Positions 11,333-63,331 of a stretch of 64,000 bases of DNA are shown in pieces. Within the stretch, counting starts at the first letter, position 1. Each line of letters starts with the position of its first letter. The notes under the pieces are model-generated. The model made no database searches. It saw nothing but the letters and a program-made list of their open reading frames with translations, and was not told the origin of the DNA. Where the stretch lies: NCBI GenBank assembly GCA_963778565.1, contig CAVZUZ010000009.1, positions 868,418 through 932,417 of the forward strand, written 5' to 3'. Made by a program: the position numbers and the translations under genes. This DNA is from Thermoanaerobaculaceae bacterium. Its GTDB lineage: Bacteria; Acidobacteriota; Thermoanaerobaculia; Multivoradales; UBA5704.

Positions 11333-11422
11333 TGGCGGAGAGGGTGGGATTCGAACCCACGGACCGGTTGCCCGGTCAACGGTTTTCGAGACCGCCCCAT
11401 TCGACCGCTCTGGCACCTCTCC
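11333..11422 (-). tRNA. tRNA-Ser(CGA)
   Basis: GGAGAGG acceptor, anticodon arm gcggt-CT CGA AA-accgt, long variable arm, GGTTCGAATCC, CCA end. Confidence 0.95.
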
Positions 11423-11446
11423 GGTTGTCTCTTCCTGCTGATCGAT

Positions 11447-11536
<90 letters not shown>

Positions 11537-12243: not shown

Positions 12244-12351
12244 CGAAGGGTTCGGGTCCTGTGCATCGGTCTGCACCGAACCTCGTCAGGCCCGGAAGGG
12301 AGCAGCGATAAGGTGTCCGGTCGAGTGCCGCAGATTCACCGGAACCCTTCG
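12244..12351 (+). ncRNA. ffs: Small SRP RNA (4.5S)
   Basis: Conserved helix-8 motif TCAGG-CCCGGAAGGG-AGCAGC; terminal stem cgaagggttc/gaacccttcg; located between tadA and dnaX. Confidence 0.92.
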
Positions 12352-17571: not shown

Positions 17572-18573
17572 TTGGGGATCGAGAAGCTTCTGCGGCGATG
17601 GGAGATCTTCTCCCACTTTACGGACGAGGAGCTCGTTCAGCTGGCGCAGTGCGCCACGCGCAGCCGCTTTCCCGCCGGAATCACGGTGGTCAAGGAAGGC
17701 GAGCCCACCCAGGACGCCTATCTGATCGAGAGCGGCGGCGTACGTATCCAGCGCAAGACGCCCTATGGCCAGTTCAGCCTGGCGGCCCTGACGCCGGGCG
17801 CGATCTTCGGCGAGACCGCGTTCGTCGATCGCGTCCCCCGCTCGGGAAGCGCGGTGACGACGGCCGAGACCGAGCTGATCGCCCTGAATCCCGTCGCCCT
17901 GTCGAACCACATGGAGCGCGATCCACGTTTCAAGCTGGCGCTCTACTGGGCGTTCTGGAAGAGCTTGTCGTCCAAGCTCCGGCAGACGAACGAGAACCTC
18001 TCCCAGTTCTTCTCGGAGACCGCCAGGCCGCCGAGCGCCGAGCCGGCTTCGACGCGGGAGTCGACCGGCGAGTTCCGCGTCGACCTCGCCTCCAAACGCA
18101 AGCTCTTCCAGGAGCAGAAGCTCTCGAGCCTGGAGATCAACTTCCTTACCTCGCTCTCCCGGGAGCGGAAGTACGGTCCCAACCAGGTCATCTTCCGCGA
18201 AGGGGACACCGGCAACGAGATGTACGTGGTGCTCGAGGGGCGGGTGATGATCAGCAAGTACATCCCCGGAGCGGGCGAGGAGGCGCTCGCCTTTCTCGAA
18301 CGGGGCGGCTACTTCGGCGAGATGGCGCTGATCGACAACGAGCCGCGATCCGCCGACGCCAAGGCGCACGAGGCCGGTACCGTCGTGCTCGCCATCTCCC
18401 GCGAAGTGCTGGCGGGCATCCTCGACATCCATAAGCTCTCGTCGATCCGGCTGCTGACCATCCTCTGCAACCTGGTGGCGAGCCGCCTGCGCGAGCTGGA
18501 CGACAAGATCATCGGCTGGTTCATCCTCGCCGGCGGCTCGGGGATCTCCTGGCCGGTGCCGCCGTCGGCGTAA
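17572..18573 (+). CDS. Tandem cyclic nucleotide-binding domain protein
   Basis: Two CNB cassettes: FGETAFVDRVPRSGSA and FGEMALIDNEPRSADA; no HTH. Confidence 0.85.
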   Translation: MGIEKLLRRWEIFSHFTDEELVQLAQCATRSRFPAGITVVKEGEPTQDAYLIESGGVRIQRKTPYGQFSLAALTPGAIFGETAFVDRVPRSGSAVTTAETELIALNPVALSNHMERDPRFKLALYWAFWKSLSSKLRQTNENLSQFFSETARPPSAEPASTRESTGEFRVDLASKRKLFQEQKLSSLEINFLTSLSRERKYGPNQVIFREGDTGNEMYVVLEGRVMISKYIPGAGEEALAFLERGGYFGEMALIDNEPRSADAKAHEAGTVVLAISREVLAGILDIHKLSSIRLLTILCNLVASRLRELDDKIIGWFILAGGSGISWPVPPSA

Positions 18574-19639
18574 CGCTTCCCTCCCCCAGCGCGCCCAGCG
18601 CCTTGCCCACCAGCGAGGACAGGGGCAGCCCGGCGCGCCCGGTCTCGTCGAACCAGCCGGCCACCTGTCCCCGAGCGGATCCCTCGCGCAGCTCGCCGCC
18701 CCAGGCGAGCTGCGCCGGGTGGACGTCGATCTCCAGGTCGCGGTAGGTAATGCCGTGACGCACCGTGGCGGCGCGGGCCGCGAGGGTCCACCGGCCACCA
18801 TAGCGGGCCGCGAGCGCGGCCTCCGGCGGCCCGTCCTCCGGCACGCCGTCCCGCTCCAGGGTCACCCACGGCAGCTCCCAGGTACCGGCAAGGAGGAGGC
18901 TGTCTTCAGGCCGGCGGAAGAGGAGGACTCCGCCGCCGTTCGACACCACGGCGACCAGGAGCCGGTGCCGTTCGGCATCGCGCTTCGCCTTCGGGAGAGG
19001 GTACCGCTCGGGCTCTCCCTCGCGCGCCGCTCGGCAGCCCGTTAGAAGGGGGCAGAGGAGGCACCGGGGGCGCCGCGGCAGACAGAGCGTCGCCCCGAGC
19101 TCCATCAGCGCCTGATTGCTGTCGCCCGGGCGCCGACGATCCATCAGCTCGGCCGCAGTTGCGAGCAGCTTGCGGCGCGAAGGCCCAGCGCGTGGGCTCT
19201 CGCCGAGCGCCAGGTAGCGCGAGAGCGCGCGCTCGACGTTGCCGTCCATGACCGGCGCGGCAACCCCGAAGGCGATGCTCGCCACGGCCGCCGCGGTGTA
19301 GGGTCCGACCCCGGGAAGGGCGCGGAGGCCCTCGACGGTGGCAGGAAACGCTCCGCGCTCGGCGACCTTCCGCGCCGCAGCGTGGAGCTGCCGCGCCCGC
19401 CGGTAATAACCGAGCCCGGACCATAGCACCAGCACCTCTTCCACCTCGGCTCCCGCCAGAGCCTCCACCGTCGGGAAGCGTTCCAGGAAACGGCCAAAGA
19501 AGGGAATCACCGTCTCCACCCGGGTCTGCTGAAGCATGACCTCGGAGAGCCAGATCTTGTAGGGATCGACCGTACGGCGCCAGGGGAGATCCCGGCGGTG
19601 CCGGTCGAACCAGGCGAGGAGGAGGCCGGAACGCCGCAT
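18521..19639 (-). CDS. mutY: A/G-specific adenine glycosylase MutY
   Basis: RDLPWR, SEVMLQQT, WSGLGYY, LPGVGPYTA, DGNV, C-x6-C-x2-C-x5-C FeS motif. Confidence 0.95.
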   Translation of the reverse strand: MRRSGLLLAWFDRHRRDLPWRRTVDPYKIWLSEVMLQQTRVETVIPFFGRFLERFPTVEALAGAEVEEVLVLWSGLGYYRRARQLHAAARKVAERGAFPATVEGLRALPGVGPYTAAAVASIAFGVAAPVMDGNVERALSRYLALGESPRAGPSRRKLLATAAELMDRRRPGDSNQALMELGATLCLPRRPRCLLCPLLTGCRAAREGEPERYPLPKAKRDAERHRLLVAVVSNGGGVLLFRRPEDSLLLAGTWELPWVTLERDGVPEDGPPEAALAARYGGRWTLAARAATVRHGITYRDLEIDVHPAQLAWGGELREGSARGQVAGWFDETGRAGLPLSSLVGKALGALGEGSVTPTAAPARRSPSRRRG

Positions 19640-19699: not shown

Positions 19700-19892
19700 A
19701 GACGCTTCTCCCTCCTGGCGGAGGGAGAACAGGGGGGAGGCCCCATCTCTCCGGTTGGCTATTGTGGCTGTACCCCTGTGGTTAGGGGAATGTAGGTCGG
19801 ATTGAAAGAGGGCGAGATCCGAGGATCTCTAAGCTTGGTAGGACTGAGTTGGTGGGTCTGGAAACCTCCCCCCGCCTGTTACCGTGTCCTGC
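19700..19892 (-). ncRNA. Putative sigma54-dependent structured sRNA, copy 1
   Basis: Closing stem 19732-19740/19865-19873; hairpins CCCCT/AGGGG and GAGATC/GATCTC; 3' hairpin 19706-19729; homologous to 20060-20268. Confidence 0.65.
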
Positions 19893-19902
19893 AAGTGCTC
19901 TG

Positions 19903-19919
19903 TGCAACAGCCGTGCCGA
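19903..19919 (-). promoter_or_regulatory. sigma54 (-24/-12) promoter for sRNA copy 1
   Basis: Minus strand TCGGCACGGCTGTTGCA = GG-N10-GC with GGCACG...TTGC consensus. Confidence 0.75.
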
Positions 19920-20059
19920 CCCCAGCATTCCCCGGTAGGCCCGTTCCTCGAGCGCCCTTCCGGACGCTCGGCCGGGGTTGAGGAGACCGCCTCCACCTCT
20001 CACCCCTGTCCGGTCTTTTTTACAGGCGGCACGTGAAAGGATTGCCCGGCGGTACCCCC

Positions 20060-20100
20060 AAAAAGAGAGCGCCCCCCGACGCCGAAGGCGCGGGGGGCTC
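20060..20100 (-). terminator. Intrinsic terminator of sRNA copy 2
   Basis: Minus strand gagccccccgcgcc-ttcg-gcgtcggggggcgctc followed by tcttttt. Confidence 0.75.
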
Positions 20101-20268
20101 AGGGGGGAGGTTCCCTGCTTCGTGGTTGGCTGAGTTGGCTGGGTCTACCCCTGCTCAGGGGACGAAGGAGGGATCGTCATAGGGTGAGATCGCGTTAGGA
20201 TCTCTGAATGAGGATGGCTATCTTTTCGGCTGGATGGAACCTCCCCCTCGTTGCCTACTGATATGTGC
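20060..20268 (-). ncRNA. Putative sigma54-dependent structured sRNA, copy 2
   Basis: Closing stem GGGGGAGGTTCC/GGAACCTCCCCC, the same two internal hairpins as copy 1, terminator. Confidence 0.68.
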
Positions 20269-20278
20269 TCGTGGTTTT

Positions 20279-20295
20279 TGCAAAGAGCGTGCCGG
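20279..20295 (-). promoter_or_regulatory. sigma54 (-24/-12) promoter for sRNA copy 2
   Basis: Minus strand CCGGCACGCTCTTTGCA = GG-N10-GC. Confidence 0.75.
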
Positions 20296-20451
20296 GCCGC
20301 GATGGCGCGCGGAGGACGAGGAAAACCGCGTTTGCGCGAGGGCCGGCCCCTCTTGACCGGGGAGGGAACGCCCTCCAGGGCGGTTTCGTTCGTACAAACC
20401 GCCTGCTCAGAGTTTGGCATTTCTACATAGCGTGGTCCTCTGGATTGGGAT

Positions 20452-20958
20452 TTGACAGGATCCCACGGATGTCGGAGCTTCCGGGAGAACCGCACGATCG
20501 GCTGGAAGGAGTATCTGGACCTCCCGGAGCTGGGGCTCTTCCGCCTCAAGGCCAAGGTGGACACCGGGGCCCGCACCTCGACGCTGCACGTGGACTCGCT
20601 GCGGGTGCTGGAGACGCTGCCGGACGGTTCGGAGCGGGTGGAGCTGGTGATCGGCCCCGATCGCCGCCGGCCGGAGCTGCGGGTTCGTACGCAGGCGCGG
20701 GTGATCCGGCGCATGCGGGTCGTCGACTCCGGCGGCCATCCCGAGGTGCGGCCGGTTGTCGAGACCGAGATGGTGCTCGGGCCGGTTCGCAAACGGATCC
20801 TGCTGACGCTGACAGACCGGTCCGGCATGCTCTTCCGTATGATCCTCGGGCGCAAGGCTCTGGAGGGAGACTTCCAGGTGGACGTCGCCGGAAAATACCT
20901 GTTCCGCAAATGGCATCCCCGGCGCTCGCTGCGCGGAGCGCCCGGAATCCGGAAGTAG
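20452..20958 (+). CDS. RimK-associated retropepsin-like protease (RimB-like, PF05618-type)
   Basis: IGWKEY, AKVDTGARTSTLH, DSGGHPEVRPVV, DRSGMLFRMILGR; start uncertain. Confidence 0.85.
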   Translation: MTGSHGCRSFRENRTIGWKEYLDLPELGLFRLKAKVDTGARTSTLHVDSLRVLETLPDGSERVELVIGPDRRRPELRVRTQARVIRRMRVVDSGGHPEVRPVVETEMVLGPVRKRILLTLTDRSGMLFRMILGRKALEGDFQVDVAGKYLFRKWHPRRSLRGAPGIRK

Positions 20959-20971
20959 AGGCAAACCCGCG

Positions 20972-21877
20972 ATGAAGATCGCCATCCTGTCGCGCAAGGC
21001 GTCGCTGTACTCGACGTCGCGTCTCGTCGAGGCCAGCCGGCGGCGCGGCGCGGACGTGGCGGTGCTCGATCCGTTGCGCTGCGTGGTGAAGGTTTCCAAG
21101 AAACGGCCGGAGGTCTTCCACGACGGCGAGCGGGTGACGGGTGTCGACGGCGTCGTGCCGCGCATCGGCGCCTCGATCACCTTCTACGGCCTGGCCGTCC
21201 TGCGGCAATTCGAGATGATGGGCGTTTTCCCCGCCAACGAGAGCCAGGCCATCTCGCGCAGCCGCGACAAGCTGCGCAGCCTGCAGCTCCTGTCGCGTCA
21301 CGACATCGGCATCCCGCCGACCGCTTTCGCCCGCCGGCGCGAGGACCTGCGCTCGGCCATCCGCAAGGTCGGCGGCGCGCCGGTCATCCTCAAGCTCCTC
21401 GAGGGGACGCAGGGGCTGGGAGTCATTCTGGCTGAATCGGTCAAATCGGCCGAGTCGGTGCTCGACGCCATGAGCTCGCTGGGGCAGAACATCCTCATCC
21501 AGGCTTACATCGAGGAGGCCCAGGGGACGGACTATCGCGCCATCGTCGTGGGGGGACGGGTGGTGGCCGCGATGTCGCGTCGAGCTGGCGAGGGGGAGTT
21601 TCGCAGCAACCTCCACCGCGGCGGCACCGCCGGCGGAGTGGAGCTCGACGGGGCCTACGCTGCGACGGCCCTGCATGCGGCCGAGGTCCTGGGGCTGAAC
21701 ATAGCCGGGGTGGACATGATCCCCTCCAAGGATGGACCCATGGTCCTGGAGGTCAACAGCTCTCCGGGTTTGGAGGGGATCGAGGGGGCCACCGGCGTCG
21801 ACGTGGCCGGCGCCATCATCGACTTCGTCCTCGAGCATGCGCCGCAGGGCCACCCCCAGACCCAGGGTCGAGGGTAG
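20972..21877 (+). CDS. rimK: RimK alpha-L-glutamate ligase (ATP-grasp)
   Basis: MKIAILSR..LYST.RL, PRIGASITFYG, SRDKLRSLQLL, EGTQG, FRSNLHRGG, EVNSSPGLEGIE. Confidence 0.93.
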   Translation: MKIAILSRKASLYSTSRLVEASRRRGADVAVLDPLRCVVKVSKKRPEVFHDGERVTGVDGVVPRIGASITFYGLAVLRQFEMMGVFPANESQAISRSRDKLRSLQLLSRHDIGIPPTAFARRREDLRSAIRKVGGAPVILKLLEGTQGLGVILAESVKSAESVLDAMSSLGQNILIQAYIEEAQGTDYRAIVVGGRVVAAMSRRAGEGEFRSNLHRGGTAGGVELDGAYAATALHAAEVLGLNIAGVDMIPSKDGPMVLEVNSSPGLEGIEGATGVDVAGAIIDFVLEHAPQGHPQTQGRG

Positions 21878-21893
21878 CGGGGCGACAGACGCG

Positions 21894-22928
21894 ATGGCTG
21901 CGATGGGCGCAATGGCCGCGATAACCGCGCGCGAGCCCCTCACCTTCGCCGGCACTCCGGTGGCGCCCGGAGAGACGGCGGAGCTACGCCTCAAGGTGGC
22001 GGAGTCCTACACCGCTGAGCCGGTCAGCGTGCCGGTAACCGTGGTCCGCGGTTCCCCCGGCCCGGTCGTCTTCGTTACTGCCACGGTCCATGGCGACGAG
22101 CTCAATGGCGTCGGCATCCTTCGCGGCCTGCTGAACGACACCGACTTCAGCGCGCTGAGAGGGACGATGATCGCCGTGCCCGTGGTCAACGTCCCCGGCT
22201 TTCTCAATCAGGACCGCCGCCTGCCTGACCGGCGGGATCTCAACCGCAGCTTCCCCGGCAACCGGCGGGGGTCGCTCACGGCCCGCCTCGCCGATACGCT
22301 CTTCCGCGAGGTCATCCGCAAGAGCGATTTCGGCATCGACCTGCACACGGCGGGCGGCGAGCGCACCAACTATCCGCAGGTGCGCGCCGACCTCTCGCGC
22401 ACCGAGGTGGTCGAGCTGGCGAGCGCCTTCGGCTGCTCGCTGATCGTTGCCGGCGCCGGCCCCGAGGGATCGCTGCGCCGCACGGCGGTGGCCGCCGGCG
22501 TGCCGACCATCGTCTATGAAGCCGGCAGCTCTCGCCGTCTGGAACGGCCGGTGATCGCCGTCGGGATCGCCGGCGTGCTCAACGTGCTCCGCCACCTGAA
22601 CATGCTGCCGGGAGAGCCCGTTTCGCCGCCGCTGAAGCTGCTGATCGATCGCACCCACTGGATCCGTTCCAAGACCGGCGGCATTCTCGACCTGCGGGTG
22701 GACCTGGGGCAGCCCCTGCGCCGGGGCCAGGCGATCTCGGTCAACACCAATCCCTTCGGGCGCGAGAAGAGCCTGCTCAAGGCACCCCATGCGGGGGTCG
22801 TCCTGGGGCTGACGCAGCTGCCGCTCGTTCATCCGGGCGACGCGGTCTGCCACGTCGCCCGGCTCTCCGCCGCCGAGATCGACGCCTGGGGAGAATATTG
22901 GAGCGAAGACGGTAGGATGCGGCCATGA
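21894..22928 (+). CDS. Succinylglutamate desuccinylase/aspartoacylase family (M14-like)
   Basis: HGDELNG, RDLNRSFPG, IDLHT, YEAG. Confidence 0.88.
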   Translation: MAAMGAMAAITAREPLTFAGTPVAPGETAELRLKVAESYTAEPVSVPVTVVRGSPGPVVFVTATVHGDELNGVGILRGLLNDTDFSALRGTMIAVPVVNVPGFLNQDRRLPDRRDLNRSFPGNRRGSLTARLADTLFREVIRKSDFGIDLHTAGGERTNYPQVRADLSRTEVVELASAFGCSLIVAGAGPEGSLRRTAVAAGVPTIVYEAGSSRRLERPVIAVGIAGVLNVLRHLNMLPGEPVSPPLKLLIDRTHWIRSKTGGILDLRVDLGQPLRRGQAISVNTNPFGREKSLLKAPHAGVVLGLTQLPLVHPGDAVCHVARLSAAEIDAWGEYWSEDGRMRP

Positions 22929-24634
22929 AGAAGCTGCTCCTGATCTTCGGTCTGTTGTTGGCGATCGCTGTCCTCGCCACCTTCGCCGGCGTGCTCCTGG
23001 GCGGAAAGGGCGGTGGCATGAGCGGCGGCGCGACGGTCCTCGTCTGGCGCGTGTCCGGTCCGGTCCTCGAGCAGGAGGCGCCGCGGCTCCCCTTCGCGGG
23101 CGGCATCGCGCTCGCCAGCATCGCCGAGCTCTACCCGGCCTTGCGCGCCGCCCGCCGGGATCCCGGCGTCCGCGGTCTCGCCGTGTACGTCCAGAACGCC
23201 GACTTCGGCCTCGCGAAGGCGCAGGAGCTGCGGCGGCAGTTGCTGGCCCTGCGGCGGGGCGGCAAGTTCGTCGAGTGCTTCCTGGAGACGGCCGGCGAGG
23301 GTTCCAACGGCTCCCTGGAGTACTACCTGGCGACCGCCTGCGAACGTATCCATCTCGCTCCGGCGGGCGACCTCAACCTTCTCGGCCTCTACACCGAGAG
23401 CCGCTTCCTGCGCGGCACTCTCGACAAGCTCAAGATCGAGCCGGAGTTCAACCACGTCGGCCGCTACAAGAGCGCCATCGAGACCTACACCCAGGACCGC
23501 TATAGCCCGGAGGCCCGCGAGGCCATCGCCGCGGTGCTCGACGGCTGCTTCTCCCAGATCGTCTCCGCCATCGCCGAAGCTCGCCGCAAGAGCAGCTACG
23601 AGGTGCGCTGGCTGATCGACGGCGCTCCCTTCTCCGCCGAGGAAGCCGCCAGGCGCGGCCTGGTCGATCAGCTCTCCTATCCGGATCAGTTTCGCGACCA
23701 TCTGAAGCGGCGGGTGGGCAGGGAGCCGACCTACGTGGCGATCGAGGACTATCGCCCGGCCTCACCTCTCGCCGCCAAGCGGATCGCCGTCGTCTTCGCC
23801 CTCGGCACCATCGTGCGCGGTTCCGGCGGCATCGCTCCCTGGACGGAGGAGGTCTTCCTCGGTTCGGACGACATGGCTTCCCTGCTCCGCCAGATGGCCG
23901 GGGACGAGGCCGTCGCCGCCGTCGTCCTGCGCATCGACAGCCCCGGCGGCTCGGCGCTCGCCTCCGACCTCATTCTGCGCGAGGTCGAGAAGCTCAAGGA
24001 AAAGAAGCCGGTGGTCGTCTCGATGTCCGACCTGGCGGCTTCGGGCGGCTACTACATCGCCGCCAAGGCCAACAAGATCGTCGCCGAGCCGGCGACCTTG
24101 ACCGGCTCGATCGGCGTCTACGGAGGCAAGCTCATCACCCGGCGCTTCGAACAGGAGCTGCTGGGCCTCGGCCACGACGCGCAGAAGCGCGGCGCCAATG
24201 CCGACATCTACTCCTCCCTGCAGCCCAACAGCATGCAGCAGGACTCGCGGCTGCAGCAACTCATGGACCGCACCTATGCCACCTTCGTCGGCCATGTCGC
24301 AACCGGCCGGAAGATGAAGCGGCCGGCGGTCGAGGGGGTCGCCAACGGTCGCGTCTGGACGGGCGCCGCAGCCCAGAGGATCGGTCTCGTGGACGAGCTC
24401 GGCGGCCTCGATCGGGCCGTCGAGCTCGCTCGCCAGGAGGCCGGCGTCGGTCCCGGCGAAACCGTCGCCGTCGACTTCTATCCGCCGCCGCCGTCGTGGC
24501 TCGACCTGTTCTTCGAGAGGCGCGAGCCGCGCCTGCCCGCCGCGCTGGCGGATGTCGTCAAGGCACTTGAAGCCTACCCGCCGCGCGTGCTTGAATTGCC
24601 GCGCGAGGTGGCCCGGCTGGCCCGGCCTTTTTGA
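22925..24634 (+). CDS. sppA: Signal peptide peptidase SppA (long form)
   Basis: GRYKSA, LRIDSPGGS, AASGGYY, TGSIGV, GRVWTG. Confidence 0.92.
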   Translation: MKKLLLIFGLLLAIAVLATFAGVLLGGKGGGMSGGATVLVWRVSGPVLEQEAPRLPFAGGIALASIAELYPALRAARRDPGVRGLAVYVQNADFGLAKAQELRRQLLALRRGGKFVECFLETAGEGSNGSLEYYLATACERIHLAPAGDLNLLGLYTESRFLRGTLDKLKIEPEFNHVGRYKSAIETYTQDRYSPEAREAIAAVLDGCFSQIVSAIAEARRKSSYEVRWLIDGAPFSAEEAARRGLVDQLSYPDQFRDHLKRRVGREPTYVAIEDYRPASPLAAKRIAVVFALGTIVRGSGGIAPWTEEVFLGSDDMASLLRQMAGDEAVAAVVLRIDSPGGSALASDLILREVEKLKEKKPVVVSMSDLAASGGYYIAAKANKIVAEPATLTGSIGVYGGKLITRRFEQELLGLGHDAQKRGANADIYSSLQPNSMQQDSRLQQLMDRTYATFVGHVATGRKMKRPAVEGVANGRVWTGAAAQRIGLVDELGGLDRAVELARQEAGVGPGETVAVDFYPPPPSWLDLFFERREPRLPAALADVVKALEAYPPRVLELPREVARLARPF

Positions 24635-63023: not shown

Positions 63024-63097
63024 CGGGGCGTAGCGCAGCCTGGTAGCGCACCTGCCTTGGGCGCAGGGGGTCCTCAGTTCAAATCTGGGCGCCCCGA
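63024..63097 (+). tRNA. tRNA-Pro(TGG)
   Basis: CGGGGCG acceptor, cctgc-CT TGG GC-gcagg, GTTCAAATC; CCA not encoded. Confidence 0.92.
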
Positions 63098-63152
63098 TAT
63101 CGACGGCGATCCCGCAAGGTCGTGCCAAGGCCGGACCGGGCCGCGCACACGG

Positions 63153-63228
63153 CTGCCTGTAGCTCAGTGGATAGAGCGGCGGCCTTCTAAGCCGCGGGTC
63201 GGGGGTTCGAATCCCTCCAGGCAGGCCA
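63153..63228 (+). tRNA. tRNA-Arg(TCT)
   Basis: gcggc-CT TCT AA-gccgc, CCA end. Confidence 0.95.
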
Positions 63229-63254
63229 TTGTTCTTCTTCATCCGCGCTTACGA

Positions 63255-63331
63255 GCGCCCTTAGCTCAGCTGGATAGAGCGACAGCCTCCGGAGCTGTAG
63301 GTCAGAGGTTCGAATCCTCTAGGGCGCACCA
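63255..63331 (+). tRNA. tRNA-Arg(CCG)
   Basis: acagc-CT CCG GA-gctgt, CCA end. Confidence 0.95.

Follow-up and report, generated by a model that had tools for sequence, protein, structure and literature searches.

An RNA locus adjacent to mutY

The DNA stretch analyzed here (hereinafter the window) comprises 64,000 nucleotides of contig CAVZUZ010000009.1 from a Thermoanaerobaculaceae bacterium (phylum Acidobacteriota). Between mutY (18521-19639, minus strand; Pfam domains HhH-GPD, HHH and NUDIX_4), the conserved downstream neighbor of the element described below, and the divergent genes for a RimB-like Zn_protease (20452-20958, plus strand) and RimK (20972-21877, plus strand), both identified with Pfam, the window contains an intergenic region for which a tandem pair of structured, sigma-54-driven small RNAs (sRNAs) had been proposed from the letters alone (hereinafter the original prediction). 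We found that positions 19700-20300 of the minus strand consist of two paralogous units, namely unit A (20293-20060), which is located upstream and from which the Zn_protease gene diverges, and unit B (19917-19706), which lies beside mutY; the original prediction numbered them in the opposite order, unit A being its copy 2 and unit B its copy 1. All the sequence features on which the claim of two minus-strand copies of one module was based are present. In both units, a GGCACG-N4-TTGC box is followed ~45 nt on by the G-run GGGGGAGGUUCC, which pairs with the C-run GGAACCUCCCCC located ~130 nt farther 3', with both hairpins in between, and each unit contains GGGGGAGG(U)UUCC, GAGATC-loop-GATCTC, CCCCT-loop-AGGGG and CCTCCCCCC. 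The alignment of A with B (mean column identity 77%) bears out the proposal that the stems are preserved and the loops diverge. Compared to shuffled sequences, the folds of units A and B gave z-scores of -3.14 and -2.69, respectively, with 1 equally good shuffle out of 200 in each case.

The predicted transcript of unit A is ~209 nt long (20060-20268, minus strand, as are all features of the two units), with the 5' end placed near 20268 from the promoter geometry and the 3' end at the T-tract. Its core (20099-20250; 137.5 bits and E-value 6e-29 with the covariance model R1 described below) includes three helices that are recovered by RNAalifold and show covariation, P1 (20247-20236 with 20114-20103), P2 (20204-20199 with 20191-20186) and P3 (20161-20157 with 20152-20148), and these are separated by three C-rich junctions. 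The terminator scan identified an intrinsic terminator (20060-20091) that consists of a G+C-rich hairpin followed by TCTCTTTTTG, precisely the hairpin with a T-tract that had been proposed to end this copy. For unit B, the predicted transcript is at least 187 nt long (19706-19892), with the 5' end likewise placed near 19892; the 3' end is uncertain because the T-tract is absent after the hairpin. The unit B core (19729-19874; R1, 116.4 bits, E-value 6e-24) encompasses P1 (19873-19865 with 19740-19732, lengthened by U-G pairs), P2 (19829-19824 with 19819-19814) and P3 (19788-19784 with 19777-19773). The proposed 3' hairpin, UUCUCCCUCC-GCCA-GGAGGGAGAA, is evident at 19706-19729 from both sequence and fold, and no canonical terminator was found there. 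In relatives, the core at the unit B position is followed either by a hairpin with a T-tract or by a second hairpin with a T-tract, so that unit B of the source genome has lost one or the other of these arrangements; as a result, read-through into mutY may be stronger in this genome. The non-coding character of the units, which was part of the original prediction, holds as well: no conserved open reading frame (ORF) was detected among 50 units from the genus, in which the longest sense ORFs span 3 to 61 codons with scattered starts.

Sigma-54 promoters and a candidate enhancer

Sigma-54 promoters are characterized by GG and GC doublets spaced by 10 nt (TGGCAC-N5-TTGC). Both units are preceded by -24/-12 elements of this type that were identified by pattern match, GGCACGCTCTTTGC in unit A (20280-20293) and GGCACGGCTGTTGC in unit B (19904-19917). 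Across the 64 kb of the window, GGCACG-N4-TTGC is matched exactly twice, compared to 0.26 matches expected, and 1 of 100 shuffles reached 2. The GG-N10-GC promoters claimed at these positions are the only matches to this pattern in the window and, moreover, homologs keep the box at a fixed distance: it precedes the core by 35-49 nt in 70 of the 73 distinct promoters. Exactly two GGCA[CT]-N5-TTGC boxes, on one strand and 261-411 nt apart, are present in 25 of the 25 loci from the genus; the A promoter retains this form in all 25, with a variable spacer, and the B promoter (GGCAC/TG-GCTG-TTGCA) is almost invariant. Among the homologs with enough upstream sequence, 74 of 81 carry GGCA[CT]-N5-NTGC. 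The source genome encodes one rpoN (a single Sigma54_DBD gene) and yields 32 Sigma54_activat matches, some of which are split hits of one gene, which translates into about two dozen activator genes.

Upstream of the unit A promoter, we detected an inverted repeat, TGTAGAAAT-N20-TTTGTACGAA (20389-20427, minus strand), that is conserved in all 25 loci of the genus and sits 102-115 nt from the A promoter in 31 loci, including those in which tblastn finds no RimK. At no more than one mismatch per arm, this is the sole such site in the genome; accordingly, a whole-genome regulon search with the repeat returned only its own locus and one weak site that has no promoter nearby. Given the fixed distance, the presence in loci with no tblastn match to RimK and the uniqueness in the genome, the repeat fits the role of a candidate enhancer (upstream activating sequence) to which the activator would bind. 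No consistent match was found in other genera at up to two mismatches per arm, and visual inspection revealed related TG[TC]AGAAATGCCA blocks in the loci of a few other genomes.

Several further features of the promoter regions were observed. A GGAA[AT] motif begins 14 or 16 nt before the -24 GG in 20 of the 73 distinct promoters, with one further case at 8 nt, compared with 2 in a control window; unit B carries this motif (GGGGAATG, at about 19936-19929). Just upstream of the A promoter, the terminator scan reported a small hairpin with a T-run (20339-20326, minus strand) that shares positions with CAAAC ... TTT, a block showing partial conservation in the genus, and that could serve as a bending or protein-binding site between enhancer and promoter. 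In some three-copy arrays, the mutY-proximal third copies have no sigma-54 box (L054, 1195-1343; L117, 3067-3220; L090, 5344-5489; L099, 2457-2600); these may be co-transcribed with the preceding copy or else decaying.

A conserved three-way junction

RNAalifold applied to a MAFFT alignment recovered 11 base pairs in P1, 6 in P2 and 5 in P3, and in the alignment of the 50 genus units made with MAFFT only, 7 of these 22 pairs are already compensated. Across 83 distinct homologs from the order (alignment A4), 97.3% of the cells are standard-paired and 20 of the 22 pairs have changed on both sides, in 155 cells, compared with 45-73% paired cells and 5-11 pairs with both-side changes in controls slid by 1-3 columns; none of 500 shuffles matched the observed pairing values, a statistic that is inflated by the fitting of A4 to the model and by the relatedness of the sequences. 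In an independent scan for mutual information, pairs of P1 and P2 rank highest and no further pair compatible with Watson-Crick pairing emerges; hence the three junctions look single-stranded. U-G pairs are common in P1 (in alignment A2, 24 sequences have UG and 17 have UA at pair 13-157, and 22 have UG at pair 14-156) and thus fit the minus strand only, in agreement with the strand assignment that had been made from the closing stem of unit B. The RNA is therefore modeled as a three-way junction that is closed by the G/C-rich helix P1 and includes the short, sequence-conserved hairpins P2 (GAGAUC) and P3 (CCCCU/AGGGG).

An additional inner helix, which would pair CCCUCUUU with AGAGA-U-GGG (B copies) or UCCUUG with CAAGGA (some A copies), was noticed by eye only and was dropped from the model given that neither RNAalifold nor the order-wide mutual-information scan recovered it.

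Phyletic distribution and novelty

In order to delineate the family, we built the model R1 from the 50 genus units and a broader model, R2, from 93 hits. In the 8.1-Mb source assembly, R1 identified exactly two copies, the two units themselves, and a BLAST search of the source genome with a unit produced, apart from its own locus, only short chance matches. BLAST detected the tandem pair in all 24 genomes of the genus other than the source and in none of 16 genomes from other families. With R1, 90 of the 92 family genomes yielded matches, at 1 to 6 copies and covering 11 of the 11 genera, and within the order 102 of the 151 genomes did so (a tally that includes one unpublished genome, G216); each of the 12 sampled families has at least one match, with rare occurrence in two of them (3 of 21 and 1 of 21 genomes). 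At the sensitivity used, to which these negatives are confined because the large searches ran Infernal's stricter filters, R1 found no match in 114 genomes from other orders of the class and R2 matched, in a sample of the phylum, only 3 members of the same order and 0 of 147 others. When named records were scanned with a sequence pattern, 68 stretches were returned, nearly all from soil or sediment metagenome-assembled genomes (MAGs) labelled Thermoanaerobaculia or Acidobacteriota.

No Rfam 15 family matches the region at the gathering score, and this includes Pxr and the Acidobacteria motifs, which had been named as candidates for comparison, the latter being represented by Acido-1 and Acido-Lenti-1. 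Even at E-values up to 10, the search returned only 7 weak chance hits far below gathering, none of them to Pxr, CrcZ, Qrr, GlmY/Z, 6S or Y RNA. The best of these, whalefall-1 (19706-19742, plus strand; 21.4 bits against a gathering score of 37, E-value 0.006), falls on the complement of the unit B 3' hairpin and is taken as chance. Our literature search found neither a description of such an RNA nor a regulatory-RNA paper for the lineage. Homologs with covarying stems, which the original prediction had listed among its checks, exist in large numbers, and its central proposal of two paralogous, sigma-54-driven structured sRNAs of an unrecognized family is supported by the Rfam negatives, the covariation and the conserved boxes. 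It is well supported that this RNA family is previously undescribed and extends across an order of Acidobacteriota, to which it is restricted among the genomes searched, rather than being merely a local pair, and we consider it highly probable that the family is real and sigma-54-dependent.

Genomic neighborhoods

We then compared 63 loci from relatives, counted without de-duplication. A mutY gene on the same strand is located 58-285 nt 3' of the last copy in 40 of these loci and 628 nt away in one more; in 15 loci, at least the first 1200 nt downstream are free of mutY, and 7 are too short to judge. The MutY proteins in question are 44% to 74% identical to the protein encoded in the window. 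The placement between mutY and the rimK operon is correct for the source genome, and the general linkage is to mutY and not to rimK, which is often absent. In arrays having a copy with the GGAGAGA signature (unit B type), that copy is always the nearest to mutY. The other neighborhoods of the RNA vary among the loci.

One family of the order has the RNA directly downstream of ligD and facing a DEAD/DUF3516 helicase gene (L084, 3957-4105; also L113 and L141). The ligD product in this case combines the ligase, Prim-Pol and phosphoesterase domains, so this is a second neighbor with a DNA-repair function.

Ahead of mutY itself, a TAGAAT element (19651-19646) is situated 6 nt before the ATG, and both this element and an upstream block, CTGCCA(A/T)TTTGRCC, are conserved in the genus. 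The conservation of TAGAAT suggests that mutY may have its own promoter, in which case its mRNA may be leaderless. A sigma-70 scan found no canonical promoter for mutY, and the 13-nt spacing of TTGGCC-TAGAAT is too short. A duplex test of the RNAs against the mutY start region, performed with a crude method, gave energies that did not surpass shuffled controls: the mean z-scores were 0.18 (A) and 0.28 (B), and in neither set was any of the 24 values below -2.

Traces in RNA libraries

Six RNA runs shared few words with the stretch (shares of 0.04-0.12). In each of the 4 soil metatranscriptomes examined, all from different studies, we found contigs of 79-285 nt that are 80-99% alike to the stretch and cover 19731-19863, and 2 of the 4 also cover 20158-20253. 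These contigs come from relatives and attest to presence only, as opposed to strand, ends or level, with DNA carry-over possible; accordingly, the record depths of up to 170 on the RNA cores against 2-24 on mutY pieces cannot rank the genes, and parts of the window without contig cover carry no information. The metatranscriptome check that had been suggested therefore succeeded with respect to coverage of the cores, whereas neither the strand nor the ends were seen, which makes this evidence weak. No listed RNA contig bridges the RNA core and mutY.

A CC-NN-CC motif in the single-stranded junctions

The three single-stranded junctions are 25-35 nt long each, poor in G (C 37.5%, A 30.4%, U 20.2%, G 11.8%) and together contain 3-6 CC-NN-CC motifs. 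This spacing is specifically enriched, with 300 occurrences, or 3.6 per RNA on average, against 95 +/- 10.7 in shuffles, whereas the other spacings are unenriched or barely so (CC.CC, 91 against 99; CC...CC, 119 against 91). The middle is variable (AA 94, UA 43, CA 42, AG 33, UG 19, and others), and the version complementary to GGAGG, CCCUCC (middle CU), accounts for 5 of the 300 motifs. Thus, a short motif repeated in a single-stranded context, as needed by sponge sRNAs, is present in this family. The source genome encodes Hfq and Rho, whereas a search for CsrA in this genome did not find it; none of the three is known to recognize CC-NN-CC.

Proposed mode of action and alternatives

We propose that each of these genes is a stand-alone unit in which a -24/-12 promoter, dependent on an enhancer-binding activator encoded elsewhere, would give rise to an RNA of about 190-210 nt that ends in a 3' hairpin. 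In this RNA, helices P1, P2 and P3 would hold out the three C-rich junctions, and the RNA would act in trans via these sites, most likely as a sponge, or multivalent decoy, that captures a protein with affinity for single-stranded RNA, on the principle of CrcZ and CsrB. We rank the sponge role above base pairing because CC pairs separated by 2 nt are conserved and the bases in between vary freely, as is typical of sites recognized by proteins. Taken whole, the statement that this is a real sigma-54-type sRNA family acting in trans via C-rich single-stranded sites seems to us somewhat more probable than its negation; that the RNA is specifically a protein sponge is plausible, with chances somewhat short of even. 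Still more tentatively, and on balance doubtfully, the RNA might be a sigma-54-induced scaffold that titrates an unrecognized global regulator binding C-motifs or a general factor such as Rho, a cold-shock-domain protein or a KH protein.

Several observations weigh against this proposal. No activator gene is linked to the RNA in the window or in any of 143 loci from relatives (730 kb of flanks). The sigma-54 box is absent from 7 of the 81 copies; each of these is either the third copy in an array or, in one family, a second copy. By the criteria used here, a hairpin with a T-rich tail follows 38 of 78 homologs, and the terminator scan found none in unit B, where the hairpin lacks a T-tract; therefore, some copies may not be discrete units. 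The conserved, tight position upstream of mutY could signal a role in cis, and the sequence of the P3-adjacent junction (UA.AGCCA ... CCAA.C) is itself conserved, which would suit a base-pairing seed. The metatranscriptome contigs and the shuffle statistics, with the limits given above, belong on the same side of the scale.

The last of these sequence features leads to the possibility that the RNA is a base-pairing sRNA of the RsaE/RoxS type, with C-rich stretches that would pair with G-rich mRNA sites and so alter translation or stability. The unpaired regions are C-rich and G-poor as this would require, Hfq is encoded, RsaE and RoxS are described with C-rich regions, and among the unpaired stretches the post-P3 junction shows the highest conservation across the order, with almost no variation among the B copies from the genus. 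What makes this reading unlikely, albeit worth consideration, is that CC-NN-CC is conserved with its middle left free, so that it rarely is the complement of GGAGG, and that the duplex test with the mutY start region gave no signal. The location of mutY downstream of the RNA in most of the loci, with MutY identity down to 44% and rimK often absent, along with the missing T-tract in unit B, would also be compatible with a cis-linked element, that is, a sigma-54-driven structured leader that is terminated or processed and permits conditional expression of mutY by read-through. This arrangement would resemble the cbrB-crcZ transcript, which is processed to a functional sRNA according to PMC5113210. 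We consider such a role improbable given that arrays contain 2-3 copies, each with its own promoter and hairpin, that 15 of the 63 loci have no mutY nearby and one family has ligD as the neighbor instead, and that the conserved TAGAAT suggests a separate mutY promoter; the lack of a listed contig joining the RNA core to mutY, and the far lower depth on mutY, point weakly in the same direction.

The Salmonella rsr-yrlBA-rtcBA operon reportedly encodes tandem ncRNAs closed by a 5'/3' helix under a sigma-54 promoter, and the end-to-end closing helix, tandem copies, sigma-54 promoter and DNA-repair neighbors (mutY and ligD) of the present family are reminiscent of bacterial Y RNA-like partners of the Ro60 (Rsr) protein. 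This connection is very improbable: the TROVE/Ro60 domain was not found in the source genome, none of the 61 family genomes searched for it scores above the Pfam cut-off, and there is no match to Rfam Y RNAs. Finally, P2 is a perfect palindrome containing GATC, as could be expected of a repeat of the REP (repetitive extragenic palindromic) or MITE (miniature inverted-repeat transposable element) kind or of a chance cluster of palindromes, and ORFs of 49-73 codons mechanically overlap the region, as in a small protein gene. Here the data leave next to no room. The two copies in 8.1 Mb, at fixed synteny, are not the dozens of promoterless copies that the original prediction had associated with REP or MITE elements; the compensatory changes in the helices and the strand-specific G-U pairs argue against chance, and neither the length nor the start of the ORFs is conserved. 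These readings are refuted by copy number and covariation.

Relationship to known regulatory RNAs

Genes for sRNAs with -24/-12 promoters, some of them multicopy, are exemplified by Qrr, GlmY and NrsZ, from which the present RNA differs in size, fold and host phylum, with no Rfam match at E-values up to 10. A further parallel is offered by CrcZ/CrcY; the repeated motif of CrcZ is A-rich. As described in PMC5113210, CrcZ and CrcY of Pseudomonas are RpoN- and CbrB-dependent sRNAs that antagonize Hfq/Crc via repeated single-stranded motifs, and the present RNA shares with them the sigma-54 promoter, the existence of paralogs and a repeated single-stranded motif. It differs in the absence of sequence or Rfam similarity, in the CC-NN-CC motif, in the three-way junction of ~200 nt and in the phylum, and also in that the activator gene is not adjacent to the RNA in any of the 143 loci. 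Pxr of myxobacteria is another sigma-54-dependent RNA with tandem arrangement. According to PMC5568312 and PMC5684412, Pxr is lineage-restricted, has three stem-loops and is represented by multiple paralogs in some species; the present family is likewise lineage-restricted and has paralogs. Unlike the Pxr stem-loops, which are arranged in series, the ends of the present RNA pair to close the junction, and Rfam gives no match to Pxr. In RsaE and RoxS, conserved sRNAs of Firmicutes, the functional sites are C-rich unpaired regions, and the junctions here are likewise C-rich and unpaired; in contrast to their pairing with G-rich mRNA sites, the motif of the present RNA has a variable 2-nt middle, with the GGAGG complement making up 5 of the 300 instances. 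The promoter type and the fold differ as well, again with no Rfam match.

Acidobacteriota are among the most abundant bacteria in soil. If the proposed mechanism is correct, these bacteria would possess a post-transcriptional switch analogous to Csr or Crc that employs a different recognition code. The Csr code is GGA and the Hfq/Crc code is A-rich; CC-NN-CC points to a recognition partner unlike either. The adjacency to mutY, and to ligD in one family, could then link the RNA to stationary-phase or damage physiology, and the conserved upstream inverted repeat provides a route to the activator and hence to the signal. The family extends sigma-54-controlled riboregulation to a new phylum, is suitable for Rfam and could be used to annotate hundreds of MAGs.

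Other features of the window

The plus-strand genes that diverge from unit A form a row (20452-24634) that encodes the Zn_protease, RimK, an AstE_AspA-type deacylase and a Peptidase_S49 protein; the first three of these genes occur together in many relatives. Other RNA genes of the window, at 12250-12348, 11336-11536 and 63024-63328, are ordinary and encode the bacterial small signal recognition particle RNA and five tRNAs.

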